Shown here in pieces: positions 36,347-58,159 of a stretch of DNA of 64,000 nt. The position numbers and the translations under genes were made by a program. The notes beneath the pieces are model-generated. The model was not told the origin of the DNA. It ran no database searches and was given only the letters and a program-made list of their open reading frames with translations. Source of the DNA: an uncultured Pseudohongiella sp. (GTDB taxonomy: Bacteria > Pseudomonadota > Gammaproteobacteria > Pseudomonadales > Pseudohongiellaceae); assembly GCA_951812715.1 (NCBI GenBank), contig OX638323.1:1776577-1840576 (forward strand). The letters are read 5' to 3'. Within the stretch, counting starts at the first letter, position 1. Every line of letters begins with the position of its first letter.

Positions 36347-36357
36347 CGGATTCACCC

Positions 36358-42255: not shown

Positions 42256-44142
42256 ATGGAGCTAGTTGAAGAGAAACTGGATGAGCACCATCTCGACGAA
42301 CGCGAGGTGGTGGACGTTGTAGTGCGCTTCGCTGGAGATTCCGGTGACGGCATGCAATTGACCGGCTCGAATTTTACCCTGGCGACGGCGCTCTACGGCA
42401 ACGATCTTTCCACCTTCCCCGATTTCCCGGCCGAAATCCGCGCGCCAGTGGGAGCGACTTTCGGCGTCTCGGCCTTTCAGATCTATTTCGGTTCGGAAGA
42501 CGTTACCACCGCCGGCGATGCGCTGGACGTGCTGGTGGCGATGAACCCGGCCGCGCTGACCACCAATCTTGCCAATGTGGTCGATGGCGGCCTGATCATT
42601 GCCGACCGCGGCGCCTTTACCGCGAAAAATCTGGCCAAGGCCAGCTATGGCGCCAATCCGCTGGACGATGGATCGCTGGCTGGATATCGGCTGCTGGATA
42701 TCGACATTTCCTCCCAGGTGCTTGCCGCCGTCGAGCCATTCGGGCTCGGCCACAAGGCCAGCCTGCGTTGCAAGAACATGTGGACCCTGGGCCTGGTCAT
42801 GTGGCTGTTCGATCGCGACCGGGGCGCCACCATAACAAGCCTGGAAACCAAATTCTCGAACAAGCCGGAAATCGCCAAGGCCAATATCGCCGCCCTCAAC
42901 GCCGGCCACGCCTTTGGCGAGACCGCTGAATTGCCTTCCGGCATACACGTGTACCGCGTACCGAAAGCACAGTCGGCGCCGGGCATATATCGCAATGTTA
43001 CCGGCACCCAGGCGTTGGCCTGGGGATTGCTGGCGGGAACCGAACTCGCCGACATCGACATGCTGTTTGCTTCTTATCCGATTACGCCCGCGTCCAGTCT
43101 GTTGCACGAGCTTTCCAGGCACGGGGATTTCCGCGTCAGCGCCTTTCAGGCCGAAGACGAAATCGCCGCGATATGCACCGCCATTGGCGCGTCGTTCGCC
43201 GGCTCCCTTGGCGTGACTTCAAGCGCCGGCCCCGGCATTGCCTTGAAGTCGGAAGGAATGTCGCTGGCGATAGCGACCGAATTACCCCTGGTAATTGTAG
43301 ATACCCAGCGCGGCGGACCCTCGACCGGGTTACCGACCAAGACCGAACAATCGGATCTGGACATGGCGCTATACGGCCGTCACGGCGATACGCCCTTGCC
43401 CGTCATCGCGCCGGCCACGCCGCCGGAGTGTTTCGACATGGCGCGGGAAGCCGTGCGTCTGGCTATTCGCTATATGACTCCGGTCATGCTGCTGTCGGAC
43501 GGCTATCTGGCCAATGCCGCCGAGCGCTGGAAAATTCCCCAGGTAGAAGACTTCAAGCGAATACCGGTCAAGTACGCGGAAAACGCAGCGGATTTCAGTC
43601 CGTCCAATCGCGACTCCGCAACCCTGGCGCGGACCTGGGCGCGGCCCGGAACGCCGGGAATGGAACATCGCATCGGCGGCATCGAGAGTAATTACGATAC
43701 CGGCGATATCTCATACGATCCGGCCAATCATCAGAAAATGACCGATTTGCGGGTCGGCAAGGTGGCCGGCATAGCCGATGACATGCCCTTGCAGGGCGTC
43801 GACCTGGGTAACGATGTAGGCAAACTGGCGGTAGTAGGCTGGGGCTCCACCTATGGCGCCATTCACCAGGGCGTCAAACGCGCCCGGCTCGAAGGTCTGG
43901 ATGTTGCGCATATCCACGTGCGTTATCTGAACCCGCTGCCGCGTAATCTCGGCGAACTGCTGCGCCGTTTTGACGCGATCCTGATTCCGGAGATGAATAC
44001 CGGGCAATTCGCGCGCCTGTTGCGCGCGGAGTATCTGCTTGACGCCGAAAGCCTGAGCAAGGTCTCCGGCCAGCCATTCAAGATCGGTGAAATCCTGGCG
44101 GCGATCCATTGCGAATTCCGCCAACTGGAAGCGGCATCATGA
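42256..44142 (+). CDS. korA: 2-oxoacid:acceptor (ferredoxin) oxidoreductase, alpha subunit
   Basis: 628 aa. RFAGDSGDGMQLTG, YPITPAS, QAEDEIAA. Coupled to the beta subunit with a 4-nt overlap. Confidence 0.85.
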   Translation: MELVEEKLDEHHLDEREVVDVVVRFAGDSGDGMQLTGSNFTLATALYGNDLSTFPDFPAEIRAPVGATFGVSAFQIYFGSEDVTTAGDALDVLVAMNPAALTTNLANVVDGGLIIADRGAFTAKNLAKASYGANPLDDGSLAGYRLLDIDISSQVLAAVEPFGLGHKASLRCKNMWTLGLVMWLFDRDRGATITSLETKFSNKPEIAKANIAALNAGHAFGETAELPSGIHVYRVPKAQSAPGIYRNVTGTQALAWGLLAGTELADIDMLFASYPITPASSLLHELSRHGDFRVSAFQAEDEIAAICTAIGASFAGSLGVTSSAGPGIALKSEGMSLAIATELPLVIVDTQRGGPSTGLPTKTEQSDLDMALYGRHGDTPLPVIAPATPPECFDMAREAVRLAIRYMTPVMLLSDGYLANAAERWKIPQVEDFKRIPVKYAENAADFSPSNRDSATLARTWARPGTPGMEHRIGGIESNYDTGDISYDPANHQKMTDLRVGKVAGIADDMPLQGVDLGNDVGKLAVVGWGSTYGAIHQGVKRARLEGLDVAHIHVRYLNPLPRNLGELLRRFDAILIPEMNTGQFARLLRAEYLLDAESLSKVSGQPFKIGEILAAIHCEFRQLEAAS

Positions 44143-45125
44143 ACCAGCCGAACCTGACGCTGAAGGATTTCGCCTCGGACCAGGAAGTGCGCTGGTGCCC
44201 CGGCTGCGGTGACTACGCCATTCTGAAAACGGTACAGAAGTTGCTGCCGACGCTGGGCCGGCCACGGCAAAACCAGGTATTCGTTTCCGGCATCGGCTGT
44301 TCGTCCCGTTTTCCGTATTACATGAACACTTACGGCTTCCATACCATACACGGCCGCGCGCCGGCCATCGCCACCGGCGTGAAACTGGCGAATCCGGAGC
44401 TCGACGTTTGGGTCATCACCGGCGACGGCGACGGATTCAGCATCGGCGGCAATCACATGATTCATACCTTGCGCCGCAATGTGGATCTGCAAGTGCTGGT
44501 GTTCAACAATGAAATTTACGGCCTGACCAAGGGTCAGTATTCACCCACTTCAAGACTGGGTACGCGTTCGCCTTCGTCTCCCGGCGGCTCCATCGATTCG
44601 CCCCTTTCGCCATGCGCGGTTGCCCTGGGCGCGGGCGGCGGCTTTATCGCGCGCTCGATCGACACCCATGCCAGGCATCTGTCGCGGGTACTGGGTGACG
44701 GACATGCCCACAAGGGCACGGCCTTTGTCGAAATCCTGCAGAATTGCCCAATTTATAATGATGGGGTGTTCGAGGAGGTAAAAGACCGCCAGACCGCGCC
44801 GGATTTTCGGGTGGAAGTCGAGCATGGCAAGCCGGTGGTATTCGGCAAGGAGAATGAGAAGGCGATACGCCTCGACCGCGACAGCCTGACGCTGGAAGTC
44901 GCGCCGGCGGCCGCGGACGACGTACTCGTGCACGACGAGTCCAATCTCGCGCTCGCGCAATTGCTCGCGGCCATGAGCGGGCCGGAGTTTCCGATTGCCA
45001 TCGGCGTGCTTTACCGGCGGCCACAGCCGAGCTTTGACGAACAATTCGAACGCCGCAAGGGCAAGTCCCGCGAAGGCAATCTCGGCGCGCTGCTGCACAG
45101 CGGCAATACCTGGACGGTTACCTGA
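44139..45125 (+). CDS. korB: 2-oxoacid:acceptor oxidoreductase, beta subunit (TPP-binding)
   Basis: RWCPGCGDYAIL, GIGCSSRFPYY, GDGDGFSIGGNH, NNEIYGLTKGQ. Confidence 0.9.
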   Translation: MNQPNLTLKDFASDQEVRWCPGCGDYAILKTVQKLLPTLGRPRQNQVFVSGIGCSSRFPYYMNTYGFHTIHGRAPAIATGVKLANPELDVWVITGDGDGFSIGGNHMIHTLRRNVDLQVLVFNNEIYGLTKGQYSPTSRLGTRSPSSPGGSIDSPLSPCAVALGAGGGFIARSIDTHARHLSRVLGDGHAHKGTAFVEILQNCPIYNDGVFEEVKDRQTAPDFRVEVEHGKPVVFGKENEKAIRLDRDSLTLEVAPAAADDVLVHDESNLALAQLLAAMSGPEFPIAIGVLYRRPQPSFDEQFERRKGKSREGNLGALLHSGNTWTVT

Positions 45126-45273
45126 TCAGAGTCAGGCGAGCTGCCGGTTGACCAGTTCCCGGAATATTCCACCGGCTTCCGCCAATTCCTCGAATGAACC
45201 GCATTACGCGACTTTTCCGGCCCGCATGACCTAGATTCGATCGGCCTGCCCCGGGGGCGGTCCGCGAACGAGC

Positions 45274-46737
45274 ATGGAACGGGGCCTCGATTTGTCTGAT
45301 AATCCGATATTAGCCAACCCGCCGGTCCAGGGGCGTCAATGGAGTAAAACAGGACAGAACGTGAGTTTGTCGGATCTCCTCAGCGAACGCTCCATTCATA
45401 TCCGGATGAGTTCGGCTTGTACGGCCCAGCGGTCGGACTGCGGAAGGTTTCTCGCTATCGTTTCCGATAAGTTTCCCGAACTCCGTCTCACGAAATGGAC
45501 CCAAGTTTTCGAATTGGCCAACTCGCGGCTCAATGAGGGAGCGCCGCTGGTGGAACTTCGCGATTGCGTGCTCACTTCCGGCGACGACCGACAGGCCGCG
45601 GCCTACCTTGCTCAGATCGAGAGATTGTGCAGGGTCGGGCTGGTCGAGTTCCCGCTAGTCGATGACGAAGAAGAAGTTGCGGTTATCGCGCCGCAGCAGG
45701 AATCCTATATTCCGTCCCTCGCGCCGCGGATGCCGGATACGGCATTCGTGTTGCATCGCTTTGCTTGCCTGCGCCGAGATGGTGAGGCTTGGCTTGCCGA
45801 ATCACCGCTCAGTGGCGCGCGCTTCCGGTTCGTCGATCTCGACGCACTGGACCGACCGCTCGTTCGCCGGGCTCTCGCCGCCGCGGGATTTCTCCAAGCC
45901 GGTCGCCCGGAAGAAGATGTGCAGGGGCATACGCTGGCGCACTGGGAGTTTCATGATCTCATCTATCACACCCACAGCCGCAGAGGTTGGCACCATGATC
46001 CGAGCGGACCACAATGTCCGCTGATCGGCCTTGTCGAACCGGAGCCGGTCCGGCGCCCTGAGTGGCCCGGCGCCATCGTTTCACTTCCGCGCGCAGCCGA
46101 CGCGGGCGGAGAGGCTTGCTCCGCGATCCTGGAACGGCGTCGTTCCGAGCGTGACTTCGACGACAACAACCCGATCTCGATCATCGAACTTGGCGGTCTG
46201 CTCGACCGCGCGGCGCGCTCGCGCTCGTCCCTGGCAGGTTCCGTGCAGGATTCTTCCGGCAAGACCGCGCCGTTCGAAGGGGCCCAACGACCGTATCCAA
46301 GCAGCGGCGCCATCCATGAACTTGAGATATATCCCGTTGTCCACCTGTGCGATGGCCTCGACTCCGGCTTGTATCATTACGATTCATGGCGTCATGCCCT
46401 CGTGCGCATCCCGGCTGACGACGCGGATGTCGCCCGGCTGCTGCGGTACGCGAAAATCGCGATCAGCGCACCGGGAAACCCGCAAATCGTGCTTGCCATT
46501 GCCGCTCGATTTCCACGGGTGTTCTGGAAGTACAAGTCAATCGGATACGGCAATATTCTTCGCAACACCGGTGCGCTTTACCAGTCGCTTTACCTGGCGG
46601 CGACGGAAATCGGACTTGCCGCCTGCGCGGTCGGATCGGCCGATGCCATGCTGTTCGCCCGCATCACGGGCCTCGATCCGTTTATCGAGGGCTCGGTGGG
46701 AGACTTCGTCATCGGCAGCAGGCGCGGGATCGGTTGA
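45274..46737 (+). CDS. SagB/ThcOx-type FMN dehydrogenase (azoline oxidase) with a long N-terminal extension
   Basis: RFACLRRDGEAWLAESPLSGARFRF (SagB N-domain pattern), RRSERDF, QRPYPSSGAIHELEIYPVV, GYGNILRNTGALYQSLYLAATEIGLAACAVG. The true start is uncertain. Confidence 0.8.
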   Translation: MERGLDLSDNPILANPPVQGRQWSKTGQNVSLSDLLSERSIHIRMSSACTAQRSDCGRFLAIVSDKFPELRLTKWTQVFELANSRLNEGAPLVELRDCVLTSGDDRQAAAYLAQIERLCRVGLVEFPLVDDEEEVAVIAPQQESYIPSLAPRMPDTAFVLHRFACLRRDGEAWLAESPLSGARFRFVDLDALDRPLVRRALAAAGFLQAGRPEEDVQGHTLAHWEFHDLIYHTHSRRGWHHDPSGPQCPLIGLVEPEPVRRPEWPGAIVSLPRAADAGGEACSAILERRRSERDFDDNNPISIIELGGLLDRAARSRSSLAGSVQDSSGKTAPFEGAQRPYPSSGAIHELEIYPVVHLCDGLDSGLYHYDSWRHALVRIPADDADVARLLRYAKIAISAPGNPQIVLAIAARFPRVFWKYKSIGYGNILRNTGALYQSLYLAATEIGLAACAVGSADAMLFARITGLDPFIEGSVGDFVIGSRRGIG

Positions 46738-46757
46738 CCGCCTCGGCAGCCCGCCAC

Positions 46758-49682
46758 TCAAGTGAGTTGGCGTTTTACCAGATCTTGAAAAATGCCGCCG
46801 ATTTCCATGAGTTGTTCGAAGGATCCGCTTTCCACGACTTTCCCGGCCTGCATCACATAGATACGGTCGGCCTGTTCGAGAGTGGAAAGGCGGTGCGCGA
46901 TGACGATGCGGGTCGAGGTGAGCGCGGCGAGGTTTTGCATGACCTGTGCCTGGCTTTCGTTGTCGAGCCAGTTGGTGGCTTCGTCAAGCAGCATGATGTT
47001 CGGGCTGCGAGTCAGCGAGCGGGCGATGGTGACGCGCTGGCTTTCGCCGCCGGACAATACCGACCCGCTGGTGCCCACCGGCGTCAGCATGCCCATGGGC
47101 ATGGCTTTGATTTCCCGGTCGATTCCCGCGACTTCGGCGGTTTGCCAGACTTCCTCGGTGGTCGCCCCCTCGTGGTGGACGACGATATTGTCCCAAAGGT
47201 CTTGCGGGTGTAGTTGCACCGACTGTGGAACGGTTCCGATTTTTCGTCGCACCTGTTTGAGGTTCAGGTGGCGAAGGTCGCGGCCATCGTAATACACAGC
47301 CCCCGCGGTCGGCTGCTCAAGCCCGAGGGCGAGCTGAAACAGCGTACTCTTGCCGGCGCCGGATTCACCGGCAATGGCAATGAATTCCCCCGGACGAGCG
47401 TGAATGTTGACATCGTCCAGAATGAGCGGCCCATCTGGATCATAGCGGAATGAAATATGGTCGAACTGAACCTCGCCGCCGAGATGTTCAAAAGATTCGC
47501 CTTCCGTGGCTGACTCGGGAATTACGGCAAGCAGCGGCCGGATTTGCTCAAGACTGGGCGACATGGCGGCAATCGCGCCGAAGGACTCGCCTAACCGGGC
47601 CGCCGCGGTCTGGAAGGTAATGTATACCGTGTAGACCACGAGAAAATCCCCCACCGGCAGCGCGCGGTCGCCGGTGGCGGATACCGCGAGTAGCAATACG
47701 GCGCCGGTGAGAAGGGGAAGCGCCGCGCCGAAGGCCTGCAAGTGACCTTCGAGCGCGCCGAGTTCGAGTTCTGCCCGCTTCTGGTCGCGAAAATCCCGCG
47801 CCCAGATCGCGAAGGCCGAACCTTCGGCGCTTTCCACGCGCAATTTTGCGATGCCGTTGATGATCTGGAACAGTCTGCCGATTACCTTGCGCGCCGCGGC
47901 GAGCATGCGCTGGTAGGGCGCGGTTTGCCGCAATCCAATCAGTAGTATCAGCAATAACGAAGCGAGACTGAAGGCGAGAGCGATGAGTCCAAGCGTGTGG
48001 TCATAGATGAAAATAAGGCCAAACACAGGCAGCAGGAAAATTACCGACAATATGCTGTCCACGACAACTCCCTGCACTCCGTCGCGCAGGTTTTGAAAGG
48101 TTATTCCCCGCATAGCGAGATCCCCCGCCGGATAGCGGCGCAACACCCCCGCCGGCAGGCGCAGCAGGCGATCCCAGAACGCGGCTTCGATGCGTGCAGC
48201 CGAACGTCCTTCCAGCCGCATCATCGCCGTGCCTTGCAGCAGATGCAGCAAAGCGCCGAGCAGGCCGAAGCCCGCCAGCGCCGCCGCCACCGCGTAAACC
48301 GCGCCAGGGGTTCCGCCTTGCATGACATGGTTCGCCGCGAAACCCAGCGCCAGCGCCGGCAATAGCTTGATCAGCCCCGCCGGCAATCCGCTCAGCACCA
48401 GCCGCAACAAGTCACCGCCCGAGCCATGGAGGCCGATGCGCAGCAGGTCGCGGATATCCGCGCTTCCCGGCGGCAAGGGCCGGTAGAACATCCAGGCTTC
48501 CTCTTTCAAAGCGGCGGCCCGCTCCGCGGTAACCGGGACGCTGCGCCTGCTTGACGGATCGATTTCCCGGTAGCGCCCCGCGGCGCCGGGAACCAGGGCG
48601 ACTGGCTGGCTGTCCTCGGCGCGGAATGCGAGCATCGCATTGCTGTCGCCCAGCCACCATTGATCTTCGGCTTTCAGTTTGATCCGCCGGGTGCGAACCC
48701 CGGAAGCGTCGAGTATGTCTGCCAAGCGCAGGGGAGTTTCCAACGCGGCTGACCGCCGCGGAATGCGAAACTCGATCCCTTCCTTGCGGCCTACGATACG
48801 CATGGCTTCCGCCAGCGCCGCGTCGGCGTCTTCGGCCTCTTCTTCCGTCGGCAAGTCATAGATATTGAAAAGCCGGCGCCTGGCCGCCGCTTCGTCCCGG
48901 CGGCGGCTGCTCGCCCGGGCTCGTTCGAGATTGGCTGAATCGACTACGGCCAGCCGCCGGTTGAGACGCTCAAGCGCGTATGCAACTTGGTGAAACATGG
49001 CCAGGGCCGGTAGCAGCAGACCTTGTTCGGAAAGCTGCCCGGATGATTTCGCCGTGACTTCCGTCGTCCGGAACAAGGTGAGCCAGTTTGCCTGGGTCAA
49101 GGGAATCAGACCTTCCCCGCCGCCATTCTCTCCGGTTAATTCAGCGCCATCGATCAGATCCATGAACAGACTGGCGCCGCGCGGCGGCTGGGATACCCAA
49201 ACCACGCCGCTCCGCACGGCAAGTGTGCCTGGATTGTAGTTTCGCGCGGCGCCGGGAGTCGCCAAACCGTCGGAGCGCGGATGGTGGGTTACAAAGCGGG
49301 ACAATGCGCCGACGAGGTCGGTCAGCCAGTTGTCCACCTGTGTCGCGAGTTCGGCGGCGTCGGCCCCGGCGAGCGCGGACACCGGCAGCCGTTTAAGCAC
49401 GGTGCCAGGCAAACCCTTGGCGATGAGGCTCAAGGTGGTGTCTTGCTCGTCCGGCGCGACGCCCGGCAGGAGTCTGCCGGGCGTCGCGCGCAGCAAATGT
49501 TGCGGCGCAGCCTGTTCCACGCCGCCCTCGAACTCCACCAGAAACAGATCGACGGCGCCCTTGTCGATAAGCCAGATACAATCCGGATCGTCGAGCGTTA
49601 TCGGCAGATTGCCGGCGCAAGGAACGGCAACGCCGTCGCGTGCGGCGAGTTCGGAAATCGATATGTATTGCGCGTCAGACAT
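46758..49682 (-). CDS. NHLP/NHLM-bacteriocin-system ABC transporter permease/ATPase (second subunit; N-terminal cNMP-binding-like domain)
   Basis: 974 aa. N-terminal beta-roll-like region CIWLIDKGAVDLFLVEF. Six-TM ABC domain. Walker A GESGAGKSTLFQL, signature LSGGESQRVTIARSL. 4-nt gap to the C39 ABC gene. Confidence 0.8.
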   Translation of the reverse strand: MSDAQYISISELAARDGVAVPCAGNLPITLDDPDCIWLIDKGAVDLFLVEFEGGVEQAAPQHLLRATPGRLLPGVAPDEQDTTLSLIAKGLPGTVLKRLPVSALAGADAAELATQVDNWLTDLVGALSRFVTHHPRSDGLATPGAARNYNPGTLAVRSGVVWVSQPPRGASLFMDLIDGAELTGENGGGEGLIPLTQANWLTLFRTTEVTAKSSGQLSEQGLLLPALAMFHQVAYALERLNRRLAVVDSANLERARASSRRRDEAAARRRLFNIYDLPTEEEAEDADAALAEAMRIVGRKEGIEFRIPRRSAALETPLRLADILDASGVRTRRIKLKAEDQWWLGDSNAMLAFRAEDSQPVALVPGAAGRYREIDPSSRRSVPVTAERAAALKEEAWMFYRPLPPGSADIRDLLRIGLHGSGGDLLRLVLSGLPAGLIKLLPALALGFAANHVMQGGTPGAVYAVAAALAGFGLLGALLHLLQGTAMMRLEGRSAARIEAAFWDRLLRLPAGVLRRYPAGDLAMRGITFQNLRDGVQGVVVDSILSVIFLLPVFGLIFIYDHTLGLIALAFSLASLLLILLIGLRQTAPYQRMLAAARKVIGRLFQIINGIAKLRVESAEGSAFAIWARDFRDQKRAELELGALEGHLQAFGAALPLLTGAVLLLAVSATGDRALPVGDFLVVYTVYITFQTAAARLGESFGAIAAMSPSLEQIRPLLAVIPESATEGESFEHLGGEVQFDHISFRYDPDGPLILDDVNIHARPGEFIAIAGESGAGKSTLFQLALGLEQPTAGAVYYDGRDLRHLNLKQVRRKIGTVPQSVQLHPQDLWDNIVVHHEGATTEEVWQTAEVAGIDREIKAMPMGMLTPVGTSGSVLSGGESQRVTIARSLTRSPNIMLLDEATNWLDNESQAQVMQNLAALTSTRIVIAHRLSTLEQADRIYVMQAGKVVESGSFEQLMEIGGIFQDLVKRQLT

Positions 49683-49686
49683 CGTT

Positions 49687-51909
49687 TCAAGCTGTTTTGA
49701 CCAATTTGTGGTAGACGCCGTTTTCGTCCTTCATTAACTCGTCGTGAGTGCCGCGCTGCACTTTGGCGCCCTTGACGAGAACGATAATCTCGTCACAGTC
49801 TCGCACCGTGCTCAAGCGGTGGGCGACGATCAGGCAGGTGACCCCGCGGCGCCGCAAGGCGTTATCGACCAATTCCTCGGTCGCGGCGTCAAGGGCGCTG
49901 GTCGCCTCGTCAAGGACAAGTACCGTGGGATTGCCGACCAGCGCGCGGGCGATTTCCAATCTTTGCCGCTGGCCGCCGCTGAAATTCACGCCGCCTTCCT
50001 CGACCGGCGCCGCGTAGCCGAGTGGACGGTGCAAAATGTCTTCGTGAACGCTGGCATCCCGGGTTGCGGCGCTAATGGCCTCATCGGGAATCGCCGGATT
50101 CCAGAGGGTGATGTTGTCGCGCACGGTCCCGGAAAAAAGCACTACGTCTTGATCGACCACGGAAATGGAACGTTGCAAGACTTCTTCCGGAATCTCGTGC
50201 CGCGGTTTTCCGTCGAACAGGATTTCCCCTGACCAGGGCTGAATGAGTCCCGCGACGAGGCGCGAGACCGTCGACTTGCCGGAGCCGCTGGAACCCACGA
50301 TGGCAACCCGCTGCCCCGGCTTGATCACCAGATTAAAATCCTCGATCAGCGGTGGTTTGCTCTTGTTGTAACCGAAAGTTACGTTGCGAAGCTCGACCTG
50401 ACCGGTAAGCTGCAGCCGCCCCTTGAAAGTGGGCAGGGAATCCGCCTGTGGATTGCGGCGCGTGAATACCGGATCTTCGGCGGTCCTGGTTATGTCTTCC
50501 AGGCGGTGCAAATCTGATTCGATGGCCTGGCGCTTGTCGGCGAACTCGACGAAGCGCCCCACCGGCGCCAGGAACATCATCGCCAGAATGTAAAATCCCG
50601 CCAACGCGCCCAGGGTAATATCGCCTTCGAGTACCCGGCCCACACCGAACGCCAGGATAATCGCGCCGGCCAGCATCGACATCAGACCCGGCAGTGAGGT
50701 GTTGACGTATCCCAGTTCGGCATAGCCCTTGCGGGCATCGAGTTCGAGCGCCTGTTGACCCGACCAGCGCGCGAAGTAACGATCATCGGCCGCCACCATG
50801 CGCAAGTTGTCAGCGTAGTTCAGCATCTGCATGCCGATGCCGAGCAGCAATCCCTGTTCCCGCCGCATCGCATCCGCGCGGACGGAGCGTAGTTTCTTGA
50901 TGAAATGCGCCAGCACGGCATTGACCGCGGCCAGCGCCAGCACGATCAGCCCAAGCCAGATATCGTATAACAGCATGGCGGCCAGAAACACCAGGCTTGC
51001 CGCCATATCGATTATCAGCACAATAAACTGTTCGGTAAGGTTTTTCGCGATTCTGTCGATGGCCGAAACGCGGTCGGTCAGGTCGCCGACCAGCCGATGA
51101 TTGAAAAACTCCACCGGCAGGCGCAGCAACCGGGAAAAACCGCGGCTGTATCCGGCAATCGAAATCCTCGTCGATAGTCGCTTCAACAAACGATGTTTCA
51201 GCAAGGAAAGCAGATAGGCCAGCAAGCCGGCGCTACCCAGCAGAACCGCCGTCATGAGGCCCCAAGGTTGCTGGTTGATCAGCACATGGTCCACGAAGAC
51301 GCTCACCGAGGCGGGCGCCGCCAGCGCTAGCAAGGCCAGCATCAAACCGCAGACGAACGCTCCGGCGAGCCCATCCCAGGTCCCACCCAGCCAGACTCGC
51401 GCCTGCTTCAGCAAGCCGGGGCGTTCGCCGCCGGCCTTGAAGTTCTCGCCACGCTTCAGCCGCAGCGTGATTCTGCTGTAGCCCTTGTTGAATTCTTCCG
51501 TGGTAACCCGGCGTCTGCCAGTGGCGGGGTCGTTCAGATAGAGGTGATTTTCGTCATAGCCTTCCAGAACTACGAAGTGACTGTATTGCCAAAACAGGAT
51601 CGAGGGCAGCGACAATCGCTTGAGCATTTCGGTATTCACGCTCAGACCGCTGCACTCCAGCCCATAATGCCGCGCGGCGCGCAGGATGCCGGCCGCGCTT
51701 GAGCCGTCTCGGCTTACCTCGCATCTTTCGCGCAATTCCGTTAGCGGAATCCAGCGCCCAAAATGGGCCAGAACGCTTCCCAGGCAGGCGGCGCCGCATT
51801 CCGAGGCGTGCATCTGCAGCAGAATCGGCGTCTTTACCCTTTGCCTGTGCGGCTTGGAAGCGGCTCCTTTCGATTGGCTTGCTCGCGAGCTCGAACCGAC
51901 TGCAGACAT
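49687..51909 (-). CDS. NHLP-family bacteriocin export ABC transporter with N-terminal C39 peptidase domain
   Basis: C39 catalytic region QMHASECGAACLGSVL, SHFVVLEGY, LNDPA. Walker A GSSGSGKSTVSRL, signature FSGGQRQRLEIARAL. Its start abuts the stop of the adaptor gene. Confidence 0.9.
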   Translation of the reverse strand: MSAVGSSSRASQSKGAASKPHRQRVKTPILLQMHASECGAACLGSVLAHFGRWIPLTELRERCEVSRDGSSAAGILRAARHYGLECSGLSVNTEMLKRLSLPSILFWQYSHFVVLEGYDENHLYLNDPATGRRRVTTEEFNKGYSRITLRLKRGENFKAGGERPGLLKQARVWLGGTWDGLAGAFVCGLMLALLALAAPASVSVFVDHVLINQQPWGLMTAVLLGSAGLLAYLLSLLKHRLLKRLSTRISIAGYSRGFSRLLRLPVEFFNHRLVGDLTDRVSAIDRIAKNLTEQFIVLIIDMAASLVFLAAMLLYDIWLGLIVLALAAVNAVLAHFIKKLRSVRADAMRREQGLLLGIGMQMLNYADNLRMVAADDRYFARWSGQQALELDARKGYAELGYVNTSLPGLMSMLAGAIILAFGVGRVLEGDITLGALAGFYILAMMFLAPVGRFVEFADKRQAIESDLHRLEDITRTAEDPVFTRRNPQADSLPTFKGRLQLTGQVELRNVTFGYNKSKPPLIEDFNLVIKPGQRVAIVGSSGSGKSTVSRLVAGLIQPWSGEILFDGKPRHEIPEEVLQRSISVVDQDVVLFSGTVRDNITLWNPAIPDEAISAATRDASVHEDILHRPLGYAAPVEEGGVNFSGGQRQRLEIARALVGNPTVLVLDEATSALDAATEELVDNALRRRGVTCLIVAHRLSTVRDCDEIIVLVKGAKVQRGTHDELMKDENGVYHKLVKTA

Positions 51910-52461
51910 TCAAGTTCTTCCAGGTCCCAGGAGTGAAACAGGTGAATATTCACCCAGGGTGACGACGATTCTGCATTCCGATCCATCCACCGCGGATTCG
52001 CTGATGTCTTCGCCAAGCGAGATTCCCAGCCGGTGCATAGCCGCGGGCGCCGCGGCGGTTTGCCATTGCATCCCGCCGGAGTCGGTAACGGCGGCGATTG
52101 AGGCTATCTCGCCGACAACCCGCAATCCTTCTCCGTTAACGCCGGAAAGCTCTAACGCAGTTGTCATTCCGGGCTCGAGCATTTGCGCGATGTCCCGCTC
52201 GAGCCAGATCATGGACTGCACCGTCCGGCCCGTGGCGGCCGGATCTCCGGCAGCGGCAACCAGCACGCCGTCGAGAGCGACGCTGCGTGTTACGCTCCCC
52301 AGGAACAGCCATCCGGCAAGCGCGAGCAAGGTTAATCCGCATGCCGCGACGAGCAGGCGTTCACGGGGCGTGGTGACTGTAAGCAGCCGGTCGAGTTGCT
52401 CCCGCTCCTCCTTGGCCTCCGCGACGATTTCGTGGAATGGTTCAAAAGGATCTGCAAACAC
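51910..52461 (-). CDS. HlyD-family (NHLM-type) secretion adaptor lacking the coiled-coil hairpin (183 aa)
   Basis: EQLDRLLTVTTPRERLLVAACGLTLLALAGWLFLGSVTRSVALDGVLV fits the N-terminal consensus of NHLM-system HlyD proteins as I recall it. The C-terminal part LEPGMTTALELSG...VVGEIASIA...CRIVVTLGEYSPVSLL fits the barrel end. The middle alpha-hairpin is absent. Confidence 0.65.
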   Translation of the reverse strand: MFADPFEPFHEIVAEAKEEREQLDRLLTVTTPRERLLVAACGLTLLALAGWLFLGSVTRSVALDGVLVAAAGDPAATGRTVQSMIWLERDIAQMLEPGMTTALELSGVNGEGLRVVGEIASIAAVTDSGGMQWQTAAAPAAMHRLGISLGEDISESAVDGSECRIVVTLGEYSPVSLLGPGRT

Positions 52462-52516
52462 TTTGTTATCCGTTTACTTGATAAAAAATTATTATAGGGC
52501 CGCAAACAAAATAATT

Positions 52517-52546
52517 TCGACATTCTACGACACGAAGACTTAATAT
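52517..52546 (+). promoter_or_regulatory. candidate sigma70 promoter for the precursor gene in the AT-rich divergent intergenic region
   Basis: TCGACA (52517-52522), 18-nt spacer, TAATAT (52541-52546). Strong SD aaggag at 52592-52597, 7 nt before ATG 52605. Confidence 0.3.
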
Positions 52547-52604
52547 AGTTAACAGAATCAATGTGTGATTCTAGGGCATTGTTGAACGGAAAAGGAGAAA
52601 GCTA

Positions 52605-52859
52605 ATGAGAAACGGCAACGAGGCATTGGATCAAATTGTCGAAAAATCCACACTGGATGCGGATTTCAGACAAAATCTGCTGGCAGATCCAAAAGCCACT
52701 ATTTGTAAGGAATTGGGAGTTACGCTTCCCGATTCGATGACTGTCAAGATTCATGAGAGCGACATGCAGACGGTGCATCTTGCATTGCCGCCAGCCATGG
52801 ATCTCACTGACGAACAGCTCGAAGCTGTCGCGGCTGGCCTTTGCTGCTGCGGTTGGTAG
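52605..52859 (+). CDS. NHLP (nitrile-hydratase-leader-peptide) family RiPP precursor; predicted core LCCCGW
   Basis: LDADFRQNLLADPKATICKELGVTLPDSMTVKIHESDMQTVHLALPPAMDLTDEQLEAVAAG matches the NHLP leader consensus, including the VLPP block and the eeLeavaGG-type cleavage motif. Six residues follow. Strong SD and a downstream terminator. Confidence 0.85.
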   Translation: MRNGNEALDQIVEKSTLDADFRQNLLADPKATICKELGVTLPDSMTVKIHESDMQTVHLALPPAMDLTDEQLEAVAAGLCCCGW

Positions 52860-52880
52860 ACTGAATCGCCGACGAGCGAC

Positions 52881-52920
52881 AAATGCGGGCGCGAAACAAG
52901 CCGCGCCCGCATTTTCTCTT
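52881..52920. terminator. rho-independent terminator between the convergent precursor gene and the 369-aa ORF
   Basis: aatgcgggcgcg-aaacaagc-cgcgcccgcatt, a 12-bp GC-rich stem, followed by ttttctctt. Confidence 0.7.
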
Positions 52921-52984
52921 CGCGGGAACCGCTTTCGTCACCGCTACGGTGGCGAAGGCAGTCTTGTGACTTTTTCGGCTGAAT

Positions 52985-54094
52985 TCAAGGCGCGACCGCT
53001 CCGGAAAGCACCATGAACACATAGGCCTTTGCCTGTCGGAGCCGATTTTTGGATATGGTCAGTTTTATGTGGTGAATGCCGCGCAGCATCACGTAGCGCC
53101 CGGATTTCGCAAACAGCGGAGTCGGTTTTGATATCCAGTCGGCAAGTGCGGCGACCTTTTCCGGAATTACAATATCCTCATGGCGCAAGGCTTGCAGGAA
53201 CGGATTCCAATCGGTCAGGCCATCGAGCCAATATTCCGAATCTTTGCTATGTCTCTCCCTCACAATCAGCGTAAGGCCGAGCGTTGACCCGAGACCCTTT
53301 TCCAGCACATCGATATTCGCCCCGATCTCGATAACATTCACGCGTTTCCCGAAGCGTACAATCGTGGAATCGACGGCTGAAACCTGACCCGGCCAACCAG
53401 TGTTTTCGAGCCAGGCGCATATTGCTTGCCGCGATTTGAATCCCATGACCGCCAGACGGATTGCCCGCGAGCGAGACGGGAATACACCGAAAGACTCCAT
53501 GCGCGTATCCTCCGGCTGCGCCAGGTAAACCCGTTCGACGTTCTCCCGTTCGGCGTCATTCGTCTCCCAGCCTACGCAGGAAACGAGCGCGTCGATCACC
53601 GTGCCGGCATCGTTCGCCCGGCCTCCGGCGCCGATAATCGGACGTTCGCGGGGTATCAGGAACATACCCGGAAGCGGAGATTCGCCACCCCGGGCAGTGC
53701 CAATGTCATATTCCAGCATCAACTTGCGACCGACAATTTTGCGCAGAGATGAGTTTTCGGCATCGATTTGCCGGCACAGCCGCGTGATCGCGTTCGCGGT
53801 CTCGTCCGTCCGCGCCCGTTTCCGGAAATACGCTGCCGACCTGCTTCCGCTCGCCAGCGAGATGCCGAAATCCGCCTCCGGCCTGCTCGTATGCAGCGGC
53901 AATTCGAAGCCGAACGGAAGGGCGGCCATTGTGATAGGAAGGTTCCGAGCGCATTCGAGTATGCCTTCCCATTCCGGGTCTCCGATCAGAACCGGCGAAA
54001 TCCGGTTGCGAAAGTGCCCCAGCAAGTCGCCCATGGCGCCGCCCTCTTCGGCGAGCCGGTCCTCGGTTAGCGCGACTGCTTCGTCGCTTTGCAT
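52985..54094 (-). CDS. hypothetical protein in the RiPP operon (candidate tailoring enzyme; family not recognised)
   Basis: 369-aa ORF co-oriented with the cyclodehydratase and the leader-fused gene. Repeated paired-strand-like segments: LMLEYDIG, AIRLAVMGF, VIEIGANIDV...LGLTLIV, IHHIKLTIS...AKAYVFMV. Confidence 0.55.
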   Translation of the reverse strand: MQSDEAVALTEDRLAEEGGAMGDLLGHFRNRISPVLIGDPEWEGILECARNLPITMAALPFGFELPLHTSRPEADFGISLASGSRSAAYFRKRARTDETANAITRLCRQIDAENSSLRKIVGRKLMLEYDIGTARGGESPLPGMFLIPRERPIIGAGGRANDAGTVIDALVSCVGWETNDAERENVERVYLAQPEDTRMESFGVFPSRSRAIRLAVMGFKSRQAICAWLENTGWPGQVSAVDSTIVRFGKRVNVIEIGANIDVLEKGLGSTLGLTLIVRERHSKDSEYWLDGLTDWNPFLQALRHEDIVIPEKVAALADWISKPTPLFAKSGRYVMLRGIHHIKLTISKNRLRQAKAYVFMVLSGAVAP

Positions 54095-54176
54095 ATTCGG
54101 TTTCCTCGGACAACCGCGAGCGCCGAACTGAAATCGACTTCCGCGCTCAATGATGGATCGATTCGATAGAGAAGGA

Positions 54177-55481
54177 TCATCGACCTGCCAGGATTTCGAC
54201 GAGACGCTCCAAAGCTTCGATGCAAAACGCCGAGGTCACGGCTTCGGAGCCATGCCCTATCCGCCCCGCCACACCCCATTTCATATGCTGGTCGCCAAAC
54301 GCGAGCAGCTCCGGCCAACTGCCGTCCTGACGTTGCGAGCCCATTAATACTTGCGCCAGGCGTTTCGCGTCGACGCTCTCAAGAGCTCCAATATTATAGA
54401 GCGCCGACACTGCTTGGGCAGTCCCGAGGATGTTGCCAAATTCTCCCTTGTCATCGCTTAAGCCCAGAATGCGATCCGCCAGTATCGGGCGCAGCCGTTC
54501 GAGCGCGGGCCGCGCGCGACTCATGGCGCGGGCGGCCGCATAGTAGATCGCGACCGTATCGGGATACCATTTTGACGAACCTTCAAGCTTGCCTTCCGCG
54601 ATCAAGGCCTCCAGCCATCGTTGAGCATCCCTGGTTTCGGGATAATCGCCCAGGTAAGCAATGACGTTCGCATTAACGACGGGGTCGGCTTCTATACGAA
54701 AGGGCGGCGCGACGTCGGGTTCGTCCTCCGCGTGCAACCAGGTCATGAATCGGCCCTCTTCGTCGCGGTTCTCAAGCATTTGCGAAACGTTCCTTCTCAG
54801 CGAAATCCAGGGGTGAGTCCCGATGACCAGCGAACAGAGCGCGGCGCTGTCTAGATCCAGGGGCAGATGGCGGTAATAGCGCCACAACCCGGGATATTCG
54901 ATGGTGTCGACAAGATACGCCTTGGTTGCGGCGCACATGGCCCTGGCCCGCGCTTCATCGCAACTTTCGAGAGCAAGGACGCAAAAAGCCGAAATAAAGG
55001 GGGGTTTTTCGTAATGCCGCGGAATGTCCGGGTCAGCCGTATTGAACCGCACACAGCGCCAGGCCCCGTTCTCGTCAATGGTCGATTCCAGGAACTCCAG
55101 ACCGCGGCGGATACTTTCCCTGCCCGCTTTTGCAAGTGCTTCGGGTGTAGCTACGCTTGCTCGGGCTATCGTCCTGTCGACTGAGTGGGGACGAAGAGGC
55201 GGCGCGGGGTCGTACATCGTTTTGCGAAGAAAATCTAGCGATGTGGTACCGGCTTTTGCCGCCTCCCGTTCCGCGGCGCTGAATTTGCCGCGCGGCGGGA
55301 GCACCAGATGTGTCGCGTTGCAGGTTTCCTCATGCACATGAATTTCGTGATCTTCGGCCAGCATCACGCCGAGTTCCTTCTCGATCGCTTCCCTGGGATT
55401 CGCGATAAGGCGTTGACGAAATTCGCTGTCTTCGCCGGCTTTCGATAAGAGAGACTCTACTGAATCGATGCGCTTCTTCAT
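54177..55481 (-). CDS. NHLP leader-like domain fused to a prenyltransferase/squalene-cyclase-repeat (alpha/alpha toroid) domain
   Basis: N-terminal ~78 aa (EDSEFRQRLIANPREAIEKELGVMLAEDHEIHVHEETCNATHLVLPP...EREAAKAG) aligns without gaps with the precursor leader. The C-terminal ~365 aa carries QW-type repeats IDENGAWR, NRDEEGRFMTW, SDDKGEFG, QRQDGSWP. ATG at 55481 chosen (ggaaaag 4 nt upstream); the track ORF starts at a TTG at 55517. Confidence 0.75.
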   Translation of the reverse strand: MKKRIDSVESLLSKAGEDSEFRQRLIANPREAIEKELGVMLAEDHEIHVHEETCNATHLVLPPRGKFSAAEREAAKAGTTSLDFLRKTMYDPAPPLRPHSVDRTIARASVATPEALAKAGRESIRRGLEFLESTIDENGAWRCVRFNTADPDIPRHYEKPPFISAFCVLALESCDEARARAMCAATKAYLVDTIEYPGLWRYYRHLPLDLDSAALCSLVIGTHPWISLRRNVSQMLENRDEEGRFMTWLHAEDEPDVAPPFRIEADPVVNANVIAYLGDYPETRDAQRWLEALIAEGKLEGSSKWYPDTVAIYYAAARAMSRARPALERLRPILADRILGLSDDKGEFGNILGTAQAVSALYNIGALESVDAKRLAQVLMGSQRQDGSWPELLAFGDQHMKWGVAGRIGHGSEAVTSAFCIEALERLVEILAGR

Positions 55482-55575
55482 TGACTTTTCCAATTTCAAC
55501 CGCTCCCAGGCGCCCAATTCGCGCGGTAAATACTGTTCCGGTTCATATTGCCCCGCCGATATTCATATCCACTTC

Positions 55576-57969
55576 TCAAGCGATTACCGGCATGGGATTG
55601 AGTTCGGCCTCCGCCAGCGGACTCTTTCGCAGGCCCATGTCAACCGGAACCTGGTACAGTCGACCCGGCGCGAGTCTTTCCCAGAAATGGCGCATGCCGG
55701 GCACGATCACCCGCACCACGGGCATGCCGATATCGGGCCGTGTCTGATCGAGCACTAGCAGTTCCATGCCTTTGGCTTCGACCAGCCCCCGGCAATATTC
55801 GACGTCATCGCGGGCGTCCGTCGATTCGATGAGCGGATAATCCCGCGCCTGGCGCATTGGCGCTTCGGCCGGCGCCAACCAGGAGCAATCGGACAGTCGC
55901 GCTGTTTTCCACCACCATAGCGCAAGCGGGTCGTCGATCATGGGCTTGGCATTGTGGCTGCCGGGGCGATTGCCGGGCCGCGGCAGCCAGGTCAGGCACT
56001 GGTTCAATTCGCAGATCGCCCGCTGGGCGGCGATCTTCGGGTCGGCGTGGGCGCCGGCGCCGTAAATTATGTCTTCGGTTTCCGCGTCCGGCCTGCGCGA
56101 GAGCGCGACGAAAGTTGGAATGCAGATATCCGAGGTGACATCGAGCAGCCAAACTTCTCTTTCGCATTGGGCGTAATACTCGGCGGCCGAAGCGAGGTAC
56201 CGGTCGTTGAAACTGGCAAGATCGACCATCGGCGCCCGCAGCCGGTTGTACCACCAGATAGCGAAGGCATCGCGTTCGGCCAACTCATAAAAGCCTTGCA
56301 GGATCGCCTCTTCACGGGTGTTGCCGGCGGCGCAGCCGTTGGAATCGGCGAACAGGTCGAATTTTCCGCGTTGTTCGGGCGCCATGCTGTAAAGCATCGA
56401 TGTCGGCAGATAGCGATGCCGCTGGCTGGAAAGCGACCAGACCGGCGTCCAGTCGATTTCGGCATCGGGATCGAGGCGCGGTGGTATGACATTATATGGG
56501 TGTCCCTTGGCATTGATGCTCGCGGCGTTGTCGAGTTGGGTTTCGCTGAACAACTGAACTTCGTTGGGATGGATTGCCGCCGCCTCATCGGCGAAATCGC
56601 TGAAGCTCTTGCAGGTACGAATTTCCTCGCCATGCAAGGCGCCCGAGTATCGCTCCACCGCCTCGCAAAGCGCGCTGACTTCGGATTGTTCTCTGGTGCT
56701 GCCCTTGCCGGCGCTCTTGCTGCGCAAGCTGCGCCGCAGCGAACTCAGTTTGCGGCTACGCATTCCCAGATTGCTGCCGGCCCAATAAACATGCAGCCAG
56801 GAATCGGTTTCGTCGGTGGTGCGCGTCAGCCAGGTAACGACGCCACTGACCGGGCTGACGAGGTGACGGTATTTCGCCAGCGTAACTTCCGGCGCCACGG
56901 TGCGCGCGCCGCCGCTGTTGCTGACGGCCTTGGGGCTTGCTTGCAGGCGCGGCGGTACCGGCGGCCGATCCGGGCGATAAAGCGCTTCGTCGCCACAGGC
57001 CCGACATTGCGGCCGTCGCATTACCCGATGCCGCGAACTCTCGAAACGGCCGGTATTGAGCGTCAGCGCGTGCTCGTGAATCGGGGCCTCCTCGCCGAGC
57101 ACGACCCATTTGACGATTTCCGCGGCGATCAATCCATAGAGCGCGTCGATCACCGCCGGTTCCCGGGCGAAGGGCTTGAAGGCTGCCTCCTCGCCGCCCA
57201 GGTTACGCAGAAAATTGTGCACTTCCTGGTGGGCGCGCAGGCGGTAACTCAGACAGGCCCAGCAGGGGCCTTTCCCGTCCGCGTGAAAGACGGGACCGAA
57301 CAGCGGCTGAATGCCCCAGGGCCGAACAAGCATCCAGGGCGCCCCGGTTTCGAGCTGGCGCCCGTTCACTTCCGCGAAGCGCTCCTTCAGATAATCCGCG
57401 CAGACAATGACGCTGAGCTTCGGATCCTGATTTCCCACAACCGCGCCGCTTGACTCAAGCCTTGGGATCAGGCGGTCGTCGTCGCCGGATACCGCGATTC
57501 GCGATTCCGCCAATTGCTGCTCGACCCAGCGCGGCGACGCGCCAAGCGACGACCAATAGGCCGCCCGATCCGCATCCATGCCATGATCGGCGGAAAGCAC
57601 ATAGCCCTTGGTGGAGAGCGAGGCCAGCGCCGTGAGCACATCCGCGGCGGCATGGCTGGCTTCAAGCGCGGCAATGATTTCGCCTTGCGCGCGCCGGCCG
57701 TCGAGCAGCGGCAGCAGGTCGCAATACAAGCCGCCATGCAACAGGGTATTGAAAGTCTCGGAAACGAGCAGTGTCTGCTGTTCGCCGATGACGTGAAAGC
57801 GCAAGTGGGGAGCGAGCGCGGGGAGTTCGACCAAGCCCTGATCGGCTGGGGTGATTCTCCTCAGTATTCCACCAGAGGATCTCGATTCCGTTTGGGTCCG
57901 CACCTGAATATTCCGCGCCGGCTTAACTAGGTATTCTCTGAAAAATTCCAGTCCAGTCGCGGAGCGCAA
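55576..57969 (-). CDS. fused TOMM cyclodehydratase (E1-like leader-docking domain + YcaO domain)
   Basis: 797 aa, the size and architecture of PatD/TruD-type fused enzymes. N-terminal LRFHVIGEQQTLLVSETFNTLLHGGLYCDLLPLLDGRR resembles the docking-domain consensus. The C-terminal half is YcaO-like and ends NPMPVIA (Pro-rich C-terminus). TTG start is uncertain. Confidence 0.8.
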   Translation of the reverse strand: MRSATGLEFFREYLVKPARNIQVRTQTESRSSGGILRRITPADQGLVELPALAPHLRFHVIGEQQTLLVSETFNTLLHGGLYCDLLPLLDGRRAQGEIIAALEASHAAADVLTALASLSTKGYVLSADHGMDADRAAYWSSLGASPRWVEQQLAESRIAVSGDDDRLIPRLESSGAVVGNQDPKLSVIVCADYLKERFAEVNGRQLETGAPWMLVRPWGIQPLFGPVFHADGKGPCWACLSYRLRAHQEVHNFLRNLGGEEAAFKPFAREPAVIDALYGLIAAEIVKWVVLGEEAPIHEHALTLNTGRFESSRHRVMRRPQCRACGDEALYRPDRPPVPPRLQASPKAVSNSGGARTVAPEVTLAKYRHLVSPVSGVVTWLTRTTDETDSWLHVYWAGSNLGMRSRKLSSLRRSLRSKSAGKGSTREQSEVSALCEAVERYSGALHGEEIRTCKSFSDFADEAAAIHPNEVQLFSETQLDNAASINAKGHPYNVIPPRLDPDAEIDWTPVWSLSSQRHRYLPTSMLYSMAPEQRGKFDLFADSNGCAAGNTREEAILQGFYELAERDAFAIWWYNRLRAPMVDLASFNDRYLASAAEYYAQCEREVWLLDVTSDICIPTFVALSRRPDAETEDIIYGAGAHADPKIAAQRAICELNQCLTWLPRPGNRPGSHNAKPMIDDPLALWWWKTARLSDCSWLAPAEAPMRQARDYPLIESTDARDDVEYCRGLVEAKGMELLVLDQTRPDIGMPVVRVIVPGMRHFWERLAPGRLYQVPVDMGLRKSPLAEAELNPMPVIA

Positions 57970-58159
57970 CTCCGCGCCGTCCGGGCCGCGCTCGAAGCCG
58001 CGCTTCGAAACCGCTTGCCCCCATCCATTGATTGTTCATTGCCGCATAGCGAGTGTGAGCTTGTTTTCTCCCGAGTTCAATGGCCCGCCCCATCGAATTC
58101 GGCGGCAGATCCTTGCGCCGCGCGGAAGCTCTGATTGAATCAAAACTTGCCTGGATTCT

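Follow-up and report, generated by a model that had tools for sequence, protein, structure and literature searches.

What can a locus with a six-residue azole-forming core do with three further conserved proteins? The question is raised by a stretch of 64,000 nucleotides from an uncultured Pseudohongiella sp. of the Gammaproteobacteria (GenBank assembly GCA_951812715.1, contig OX638323.1, positions 1,776,577 to 1,840,576), here called the window. An earlier note on this DNA had described a locus for a peptide that is made by the ribosome and modified after translation (a RiPP), with an NHLP precursor, azole-forming YcaO and SagB enzymes and NHLM-type paired ABC exporters, and searches with hidden Markov models (HMMs) support that description. 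We place the locus, with near certainty, among the srp (sponge-derived RiPP proteusin) clusters, of which it is a rare variant. We propose that two of its accessory proteins are a predicted indole prenyltransferase and a predicted class II terpene cyclase, and that they act with an AlkB-type oxygenase in a six-step pathway. We put the probability that this pathway is right in outline at about 0.6.

The leader-fused toroid protein, in which an alpha/alpha toroid follows a copy of the precursor leader, has more than 1000 homologues of the same length and 72-87% identity, nearly all of them unnamed. In a scan of one genome per GTDB species, 298 stretches encoded a relative, and 80 loci among them were kept for comparison. 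With all window proteins as tblastn queries, every one of the 80 inspected loci carries a version of the same gene set: adaptor-ABC1-ABC2, the leader-fused toroid, an AlkB::GlnE-like protein, a YcaO protein, a 369-aa protein and a precursor on the opposite strand. The genes are not scattered in relatives, a check on co-inheritance that the earlier note had proposed. The accessory set (toroid, AlkB-like fusion, 369-aa protein, paired ABC transporters and adaptor) is 64-87% identical to the closest loci and 38-81% identical across the 80. The loci span metagenome-assembled genomes (MAGs) labelled Alpha-, Gamma- and Deltaproteobacteria, Nitrospirales, Binatia, Bryobacterales/Terriglobia/Vicinamibacteria, Gemmatimonadota (Palauibacter, Longimicrobiales), Nitrospinota, Thermodesulfobacteriota and others. 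All records of related loci are MAGs, and one is named for a sponge (Spongia_Bin9).

The srp family was reportedly first described by Nguyen et al. in J Am Chem Soc in 2021. Its clusters are reported to be ubiquitous, to occur in many phyla and to be highly transcribed in sponges (bioRxiv 10.1101/2023.06.09.544420; PMC9426513). The products of the YcaO enzyme SrpC are three thiazolines, and SrpI adds bromine to the C-terminal Trp at C6 (PMC10286304, PMC10858898); the published SrpE core is LCCCW (PMC10858898, PMC10286304, bioRxiv 10.1101/2023.06.09.544420). Like these clusters, the window encodes an SrpE-type leader with the L-C-C-C...W core logic, its precursor being 63-85% identical to the SrpE-type precursors in the loci that carry one. 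It also shares the fused YcaO, the paired ABC transporters with a short adaptor, the leader-fused toroid, the AlkB::GlnE-like protein and the 369-aa protein, at ~65-85% identity. The window differs in having LCCCGW, with one extra Gly, instead of LCCCW, and in encoding SagB, so that thiazoles would be expected where thiazolines have been reported. Nowhere in the 64 kb is there an SrpI Trp-6 brominase, and the gene order is AlkB-YcaO-fusion-369aa instead of fusion-AlkB-YcaO-369aa. What the earlier note took for an unusual combination is therefore largely the conserved architecture of the published family, in which the short core (bar the extra Gly), the adaptor, the toroid and the 369-aa protein are standard. 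A 2025 survey lists the srp accessory genes as 'several genes of unknown function' (PMC11832590). We met no functional assignment for them in the srp follow-up literature; an earlier publication of the present assignments is possible. The leader-fused toroid, AlkB and 369-aa genes are probably srpA, srpB and srpD, because in the usual order fusion-AlkB-YcaO-369aa-precursor the YcaO and precursor genes stand where the published letters C and E would put them.

All the open reading frames (ORFs) of the earlier note are present at the coordinates it gave. The locus and its upstream flank are laid out as follows.

42256-45125, plus strand: korA/korB-like genes, the upstream flank (ORF listing)
45274-46737, plus strand: SagB-type FMN azoline dehydrogenase, 487 aa, with a ThcOx-like N-terminal part (TIGR03605, PF00881, PF22767)
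46758-49682, minus strand: NHLM-type ABC exporter subunit 2 (ABC2), a permease/ATPase of 974 aa with no peptidase domain (TIGR03797, PF00664, PF00005)
49687-51909, minus strand: C39-peptidase ABC exporter (ABC1), 740 aa, C39 domain at 51448-51831 (TIGR03796, PF03412)
51910-52461, minus strand: short membrane-fusion-like adaptor, 183 aa (partial TIGR03794 match and position)
52462-52604, no strand: AT-rich divergent intergenic region, 143 bp (33% GC; hexamers; ribosome-binding site)
52605-52859, plus strand: SrpE-type NHLP (proteusin) precursor, 84 aa, core LCCCGW encoded at 52839-52856 (TIGR03793)
52885-52920, plus strand: terminator-like hairpin, GCGGGCGCG-loop-CGCGCCCGC and then ATTTTCTCTT (read by eye)
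52985-54094, minus strand: 369-aa protein, predicted ABBA (PT-barrel) aromatic/indole prenyltransferase (AlphaFold2 (AF2) model and Foldseek)
54177-55481, minus strand: leader-fused class II terpene-cyclase-like protein, 434 aa from the ATG at 55481 (TIGR03793, AF2, Foldseek)
55576-57969, minus strand: fused winged helix-turn-helix/E1-like/YcaO cyclodehydratase, ~797 aa, SrpC-type (PF21084, TIGR03882, TIGR03604, PF02624)
58160-60559, minus strand: AlkB-type di-iron oxygenase fused to a GlnE-like C-terminal region, 799 aa (PF00487, PF03710)

The earlier note had the locus self-contained at 45274-57969 and bounded by the AlkB fusion gene. That gene is itself a cluster member: it is found at 68-81% identity beside the toroid or YcaO gene in most loci, with a second type (45-62%) in the rest. 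Since it co-travels with the cluster, the unit is 45274-60559.

The azole-forming part of the locus is well supported. The precursor scores 72.5 bits against TIGR03793 (cutoff 50.9), its leader of residues 1-78 ends in EAVAAG directly before LCCCGW, and its ORF closes with EAVAAGLCCCGW. The YcaO protein has an N-terminal winged-helix domain (PF21084, residues 53-124), an E1-like region (TIGR03882, 139.5 bits, residues 210-378) and a YcaO domain (TIGR03604, 286 bits; PF02624, 321 bits, residues 420-794). It is 63-84% identical to the YcaO proteins of related loci, and its start is uncertain, at the TTG at 57969 or at a GTG at codon 23. SagB scores 147.5 bits against TIGR03605 (cutoff 78.4) and also matches PF00881 and PF22767; its start may lie further downstream because the gene of its relatives is called as 455-458 aa. 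The SagB, NHLP precursor and fused E1-like/YcaO assignments of the earlier note thus hold at above-cutoff scores.

The core varies little across the family. LCCCW is found in 60 of 63 loci with a readable precursor and in 114 of the best 120 precursor clusters; four others of the 120 have LSCCW. Only one of the 63 loci and two of the 120 clusters have LCCCGW; among the loci and precursor clusters examined, it is common to the window, L062, L081 and L083 only. One MAG has two srp-type loci (L015 and L016) about 2 Mb apart on contig CBDBZU010000004.1, and the core of its second copy is LSCCW, not LCCCW. The L029 core is LCCSW, which with LSCCW represents natural Cys-to-Ser variation. Some SrpE-type precursors (P0415, P0421, P0429 and others) match Pfam PF27793.1, and a dedicated family may already exist.

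The window locus forms a subclade with L083, L081, L082 and L062, and it is here that SagB is found. The earlier note counted SagB as a defining part of the locus; 79 of the 80 loci are without it, the exception being L062, and outside the 80 it is present in L081-L083, making it an atypical gene. As to the brominase, a Trp halogenase (PF04820, 160 bits) lies within the fetched flanks of 49 of the 80 loci. There is no match to it in the 64-kb window (best tblastn E 0.26) or in the L062 stretch, and no halogenase domain among the genes called in L081-L083. One survey found a halogenase in the same place as only 66 of its 191 precursors (bioRxiv 10.1101/2023.06.09.544420), which suggests that the brominase may not be an obligatory srp feature. 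With the brominase gene absent no Trp-6 bromination is expected, and the subclade is predicted from its gene content to make thiazoles instead of thiazolines, bromine-free.

TOMM and linear azole peptide (LAP) systems are recognised by YcaO, E1-like and SagB-type proteins and a Cys/Ser/Thr-rich core; the window has all three protein matches above cutoff and a core containing CCC. In SagBCD, microcin B17 and plantazolicin, as in this locus, an E1-like/YcaO enzyme is paired with a SagB FMN dehydrogenase, with Cys of a leader-bearing precursor as the target. It differs from them in its very short core, NHLP leader and NHLM-type export, and in three extra conserved enzymes of lipid/terpenoid type. 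Could the product nonetheless be a plain linear azole peptide, a bacteriocin consisting of a tris-thiazole hexapeptide, with the toroid, 369-aa and AlkB proteins outside maturation or serving immunity or regulation? Every core family of TOMM chemistry and export is represented with a good score, and the published modified srp peptides needed only SrpC and SrpI (PMC10286304, PMC10858898). However, the three extra genes equal the YcaO gene in conservation (65-87% identity over many lineages) and in tightness of linkage, unlike dispensable passengers. The folds predicted for their products are those of small-molecule biosynthetic enzymes, and distant homologues of the 369-aa protein recur beside other NHLP precursors. 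We therefore consider a plain azole peptide unlikely and turn to the proteins on which the proposed pathway depends, which the earlier note had treated as two extras of non-standard type and whose models fold as a prenyltransferase and a terpene cyclase.

The 369-aa protein belongs to a family of 661 representatives at E<=1e-3 in a full-library profile search, mostly 340-400 aa long. Its AF2 model, built with 28 homologues, has a pLDDT of 74, a pTM of 0.79 and five beta-beta-alpha-alpha units. When the model was compared with the PDB by Foldseek, 60 matches were found at E<=1e-3, and all 50 of the matches listed are ABBA aromatic prenyltransferases. PriB, the 5-DMATS SCO7467 and the 6-DMATS IptA come at the top (E 8e-7 to 2e-5, TM 0.54-0.56). 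The best matches are thus bacterial tryptophan dimethylallyltransferases, with AmbP3, NphB, EpzP and fungal DMATS ranking behind. In an alignment of 89 sequences with a mean column identity of 30%, D75, D130, R208, R213, K313, H342, K344 and Y358 are nearly invariant. These residues mostly sit on predicted strands, a placement that is suggestive of the diphosphate-binding interior of the barrel. The protein is therefore predicted to be an ABBA (PT-barrel) indole prenyltransferase. From this fold, the gene context and an apparent fusion described below, we lean slightly towards the C-terminal Trp of the core being its acceptor.

The leader-fused toroid protein has the following parts.

55248-55481, minus strand: NHLP leader paralogue, residues 1-78 (TIGR03793)
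between the leader and the toroid domain, minus strand: low-confidence linker, residues 79-112 (AF2)
54180-55145, minus strand: alpha/alpha toroid, residues 113-434 (AF2)
54846-54857, minus strand: D209-L-D211-S motif (alignment)
54315-54335, minus strand: QxxxGxW motif (alignment)

Its NHLP domain scores 51.2 bits against TIGR03793, and residues 1-78 are 35% identical to the precursor leader (BLASTP, E 3e-16) in an ungapped alignment, as a leader fused to a toroid, the reading of the earlier note, would have it. Both leaders finish in a small residue and Gly at position 78. In the NCBIfam and Pfam searches the protein also gave a weak squalene-hopene-cyclase (SHC) signal, and the toroid alone had a single match among PDB sequences, the SHC QW-motif region (E 0.16). 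The AF2 model has a pLDDT of 76, with the toroid domain mostly at 85-96 and residues 45-109 low. Foldseek matched it to the drimenol synthase AsDMS (E 3e-11), MstE (E 4e-9), small myxobacterial SHC-like cyclases, SHC (1e-6) and oxidosqualene cyclase. Across 28 sequences D209-L-D211-S, followed mostly by T/A-T, is invariant about 105 residues into the toroid, and so are Q383, G387 and W389, which align with the SHC QW-motif region.

MstE is the merosterolic acid synthase and cyclises prenylated aromatics. MstE and the bacterial drimenol/drimenyl-diphosphate synthases are the best toroid matches (E 3e-11 to 1e-8) and, like the window protein, have a single beta-gamma-less toroid of ~320 residues with an acidic motif ~105 residues in and a QW motif. 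The window protein differs from them in its ~15-20% identity, in DLDS instead of DxDD/DxDTT, in its N-terminal NHLP domain and in its presumed substrate, a peptide-bound isoprenoid. On the strength of the model we predict a class II terpene cyclase of the MstE/drimenol-synthase type with a full leader copy. Whether it cyclises the isoprenoid we judge to be an even bet.

Other alpha/alpha toroids, among them LanC-like proteins and protein prenyltransferase beta subunits, act on Cys thiols, and the core is Cys-rich. A toroid of that kind would alkylate or prenylate the LCCC thiols. The protein does have weak matches to GGTase/FTase beta subunits (sequence profile E 0.65; Foldseek E ~3e-3). Class II cyclases match far better (E 3e-11 to 1e-7), LanC-type proteins are absent among the 50 matches listed, and among solved structures a sequence comparison yields only the SHC QW-motif region already mentioned. 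Moreover, the canonical system uses up all three core Cys in cyclodehydration (PMC10286304). A thiol-directed enzyme is thus very improbable.

A further possibility takes the leader copy at face value, the toroid being a client of the leader machinery. It would be a second 'precursor' that is cut at the conserved (A/T)G78 and leaves through the C39-ABC system, or else it would serve as a decoy or for immunity, by filling leader-binding sites or tying up the product. The ungapped alignment and the shared ending fit this idea, as do the invariance of G78, A75, R72 and E71 and the low-confidence, linker-like residues 45-109. Class II cyclases are cofactor-free and could work outside the cytoplasm. 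On the other hand, positions -4/-7 of the double-glycine motif are Ala/Arg in the fusion as against Ile/Val and Leu in the precursors, and the fusion has kept DLDS and QW motifs without variation, as an active cyclase would. A client role is in our view quite improbable, and we retain the cyclase assignment.

The proposed prenyltransferase and cyclase also occur together. Among the 80 loci, essentially every complete one has both the toroid and the 369-aa genes. In P0364, a distant member of the 369-aa family at a contig edge, the last ~73 toroid residues (E 3e-8) continue into a 369-aa-type domain (E 1e-36), apparently a fragment of a cyclase-prenyltransferase fusion. In L085 a 369-aa homologue (~26% identity) stands directly behind a protein of the leader-fused-toroid type (E 3e-32). 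L086 and L087 have distant 369-aa homologues inside other NHLP/C39-ABC clusters, and the L086 core contains Trp. The order at L086 860-12273 is HlyD (415 aa), C39-ABC, ABC2, a 104-aa NHLP precursor (core AGAENCEWGHDHHDEYHVPLGGP) and the 369-aa homologue (27% identity), with a deaminase-domain protein, a WelO5-type Fe/2OG halogenase-like protein and a 461-aa unknown downstream. P0364 in L084 is followed by a HAD-family hydrolase, which recalls the HAD domains of bacterial drimenol synthases; some family members may therefore act on free terpenoids.

Enzyme pairs of this kind have been described. According to a review that cites Hubrich et al. (Chem 2024), the fused NctPC/ChrPC prenyltransferase-cyclase maturases place a cyclised geranylgeranyl group on Trp of RiPPs, a proteusin included, and their prenyltransferase is without sequence similarity to cyanobactin prenyltransferases (PMC13290415). 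As described there, the features in common with the reading proposed for the window are a proteusin-type context, Trp as acceptor, and an ABBA-barrel prenyltransferase that works with a class II cyclase of the monodomain, MstE-like kind (PMC13290415). In the window the two activities would be divided between two proteins, and the predicted cyclase carries a copy of the precursor leader instead; the two systems are likened by description only. What is new here is the prenyltransferase and cyclase readings for the srp accessory genes, which we infer; prenylation-cyclisation has a 2024 precedent in other RiPPs.

The third extra protein begins with what appears from its sequence to be a bona fide AlkB-type di-iron membrane oxygenase of ~370 residues (59450-60559; PF00487, 96.5 bits; alkane monooxygenase PDB 8f6t, E 3.8e-47). 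The His boxes are intact (HEMIH 143-147, HIYIHH 173-178, NYLQHYG 274-280, HADHH 317-321), and the domain is highly conserved overall in 36 homologues. An isoprenoid chain would be the obvious candidate for its substrate. The GlnE-like C-terminal region (58163-59449) matches PF03710 at 33 bits. Its residues 370-520 are well conserved, and segment 540-600, the nucleotidyltransferase core, is the least conserved part of the protein in the 36 homologues. The GlnE catalytic core, G-x-(S/G)...D-x-D, carries DxD where the window protein has VDILF. A catalytic GlnE-type nucleotidyltransferase role was rejected since the core motif is not conserved, and we read the region as a probable non-catalytic domain. 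The ORF is 799 aa in the window and L083 and is called as 676 aa in L081 and L082; in L062, L081 and L082 tblastn coverage goes no further than residues 656-665. The last ~130 residues (58163-58560) appear dispensable or divergent.

Export is assigned by family. The combination of TIGR03793, the TIGR03796/TIGR03797 pair and TIGR03794 as a signature of NHLP/NHLM export is said to go back to Haft et al. in 2010. The C39-ABC scores 838 bits against TIGR03796 (cutoff 853) and 116 bits against PF03412, and ABC2 scores 686 bits against TIGR03797 (cutoff 709) over residues 288-973. The C39-ABC and second large ABC named by the earlier note are confirmed as matches to this pair, both just under the equivalog cutoffs. 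ABC2 is 64-80% identical in related loci. Its N-terminal extension of ~287 aa (residues 1-287) is without Pfam or NCBIfam coverage, and the length of ~974 aa is kept across related loci. The HlyD-type adaptor of the earlier note fared less well: its position upstream of ABC1 is kept across related loci and it has a partial TIGR03794 match, but this reaches 25 bits against a cutoff of 156 and covers only the first ~50 residues, in a model of 421 positions. There was no Pfam or PHROG match, and the gene is the least conserved of the cluster (38-51% identity in canonical loci, 64-75% in the subclade). On this partial match and its position, the 183-aa protein is best called a putative, membrane-fusion-like adaptor.

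Taken together, these assignments would give the following pathway. The YcaO enzyme would bind the precursor leader and convert the three core Cys to thiazolines, as shown elsewhere for canonical SrpC on LCCCW and expected here by homology. SagB, in the subclade only, would then oxidise the thiazolines to thiazoles. The ABBA-fold 369-aa protein would prenylate the C-terminal Trp, and the leader-fused class II cyclase would protonate and cyclise the Trp-bound isoprenoid. Its own leader copy may dock the cyclase to the leader-recognising machinery or activate it in cis, which is the weakest step. The AlkB-type enzyme might oxidise the lipid part, a speculative step. Finally, the C39-ABC would cut after AAG and, together with ABC2 and the adaptor, export a small lipidated azole peptide.

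Several points weigh against this scheme. The model of the 369-aa protein is of medium confidence (pLDDT 74), poor models made up three of the set of five, and the TM-scores are 0.54-0.58. Neither the protein nor 10 distant relatives has a Pfam or NCBIfam match, the Trp_DMAT, PTase_Orf2 and cyanobactin prenyltransferase families included, and phmmer and two profile searches (with 28 and 89 sequences) against PDB sequences gave nothing. As these sequence searches were all empty, fold comparison is the sole informative route to its identity. The acidic motif of the toroid is DLDS, not the canonical DxDD (or DxDTT). P0364 is the sole fusion example, is truncated and lies beside the HAD hydrolase, not in a RiPP context; no RiPP genes were seen around it (L084 1-2066) in the 4 kb covered. 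A prenyl-diphosphate synthase was not seen in the cluster, the roles given to AlkB and the fused leader are guesses, and no product has been reported for any srp cluster, the published activities being thiazoline formation and bromination only.

With these points in mind, we offer only tentatively, at somewhat less than even odds, the idea that the product of srp, the RiPP cluster most widespread in sponge microbiomes, is a peptide-terpenoid hybrid, a Trp-prenylated, cyclase-processed and AlkB-oxidised lipopeptide made by a prenyltransferase/cyclase pair split over two proteins, and not a simple brominated azoline pentapeptide, the window encoding a thiazole-forming, bromine-free version. If Trp prenyltransferase, terpene cyclase and AlkB oxygenase are indeed what the accessory genes encode, the product would be a small lipidated azole peptide, and chemists would know which masses and extraction conditions suit srp products. 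The 2024 discovery of cyclised isoprenoids in RiPPs would then extend to a very large and ecologically important family. The toroid would be a natural counterpart of engineered leader-enzyme fusions and a testable case of leader use in cis. The variant, with its extra Gly and SagB and without the brominase, is a natural comparison for structure-activity work.

As to the chromosomal setting, L083 is 99% identical to the window in nucleotide sequence, L081 and L082 are ~86% identical, and L062 is a Pseudomonadales MAG. All four keep the gene order of the window's cluster and its neighbouring GMC-oxidoreductase/gluconate-2-dehydrogenase genes, and korB is on the other side in L081-L083, the three with DNA reaching that far. 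The earlier note had the locus 'inserted' between korAB and the AlkB gene. With the same neighbours in the four close relatives, no direct or inverted repeats of note around the locus, no GC shift at it and a cluster GC that tracks flank GC across 65 loci (r = 0.85), a recent insertion is unsupported. The ~75% protein identity across distant bacterial lineages implies past horizontal spread of the cluster.

The intergenic regions are largely as first described. The AT-rich divergent region (52462-52604) is 33% GC against 60% for the window. Both of its strands carry sigma-70-like hexamers, and ahead of the precursor is a ribosome-binding site, AAGGAGA. The exporter genes, noted earlier as abutting or 4 nt apart, are spaced by 0 nt (adaptor/ABC1) and 4 nt (ABC1/ABC2). 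In the second minus-strand run (369-aa/toroid/YcaO/AlkB) the spacing is 82-190 nt. The terminator proposed after the precursor is found as a GC-rich hairpin and a T-rich stretch, read by eye and missed by a consensus terminator scan. An Rfam scan of 44000-62000 (E<=0.1) gave no RNA families. Within the 5' part of the ABC2 gene, ~200 nt past its start, is a perfect 16-nt inverted repeat with a 4-nt loop (GCGCGACGCCCGGCAG / CTGCCGGGCGTCGCGC, 49454-49489).

Two observations concern the rest of the window. DnaB helicase, RadA-like and RNase R/RNB proteins are encoded upstream (33754-37740, 28230-30044), and with such neighbours the window is ordinary chromosome, not plasmid or phage. A 590-aa protein encoded at 12896-14668 on the plus strand has a match to the linalool dehydratase/isomerase family (PF18566, E 2e-11); its gene is 30 kb away from the cluster.

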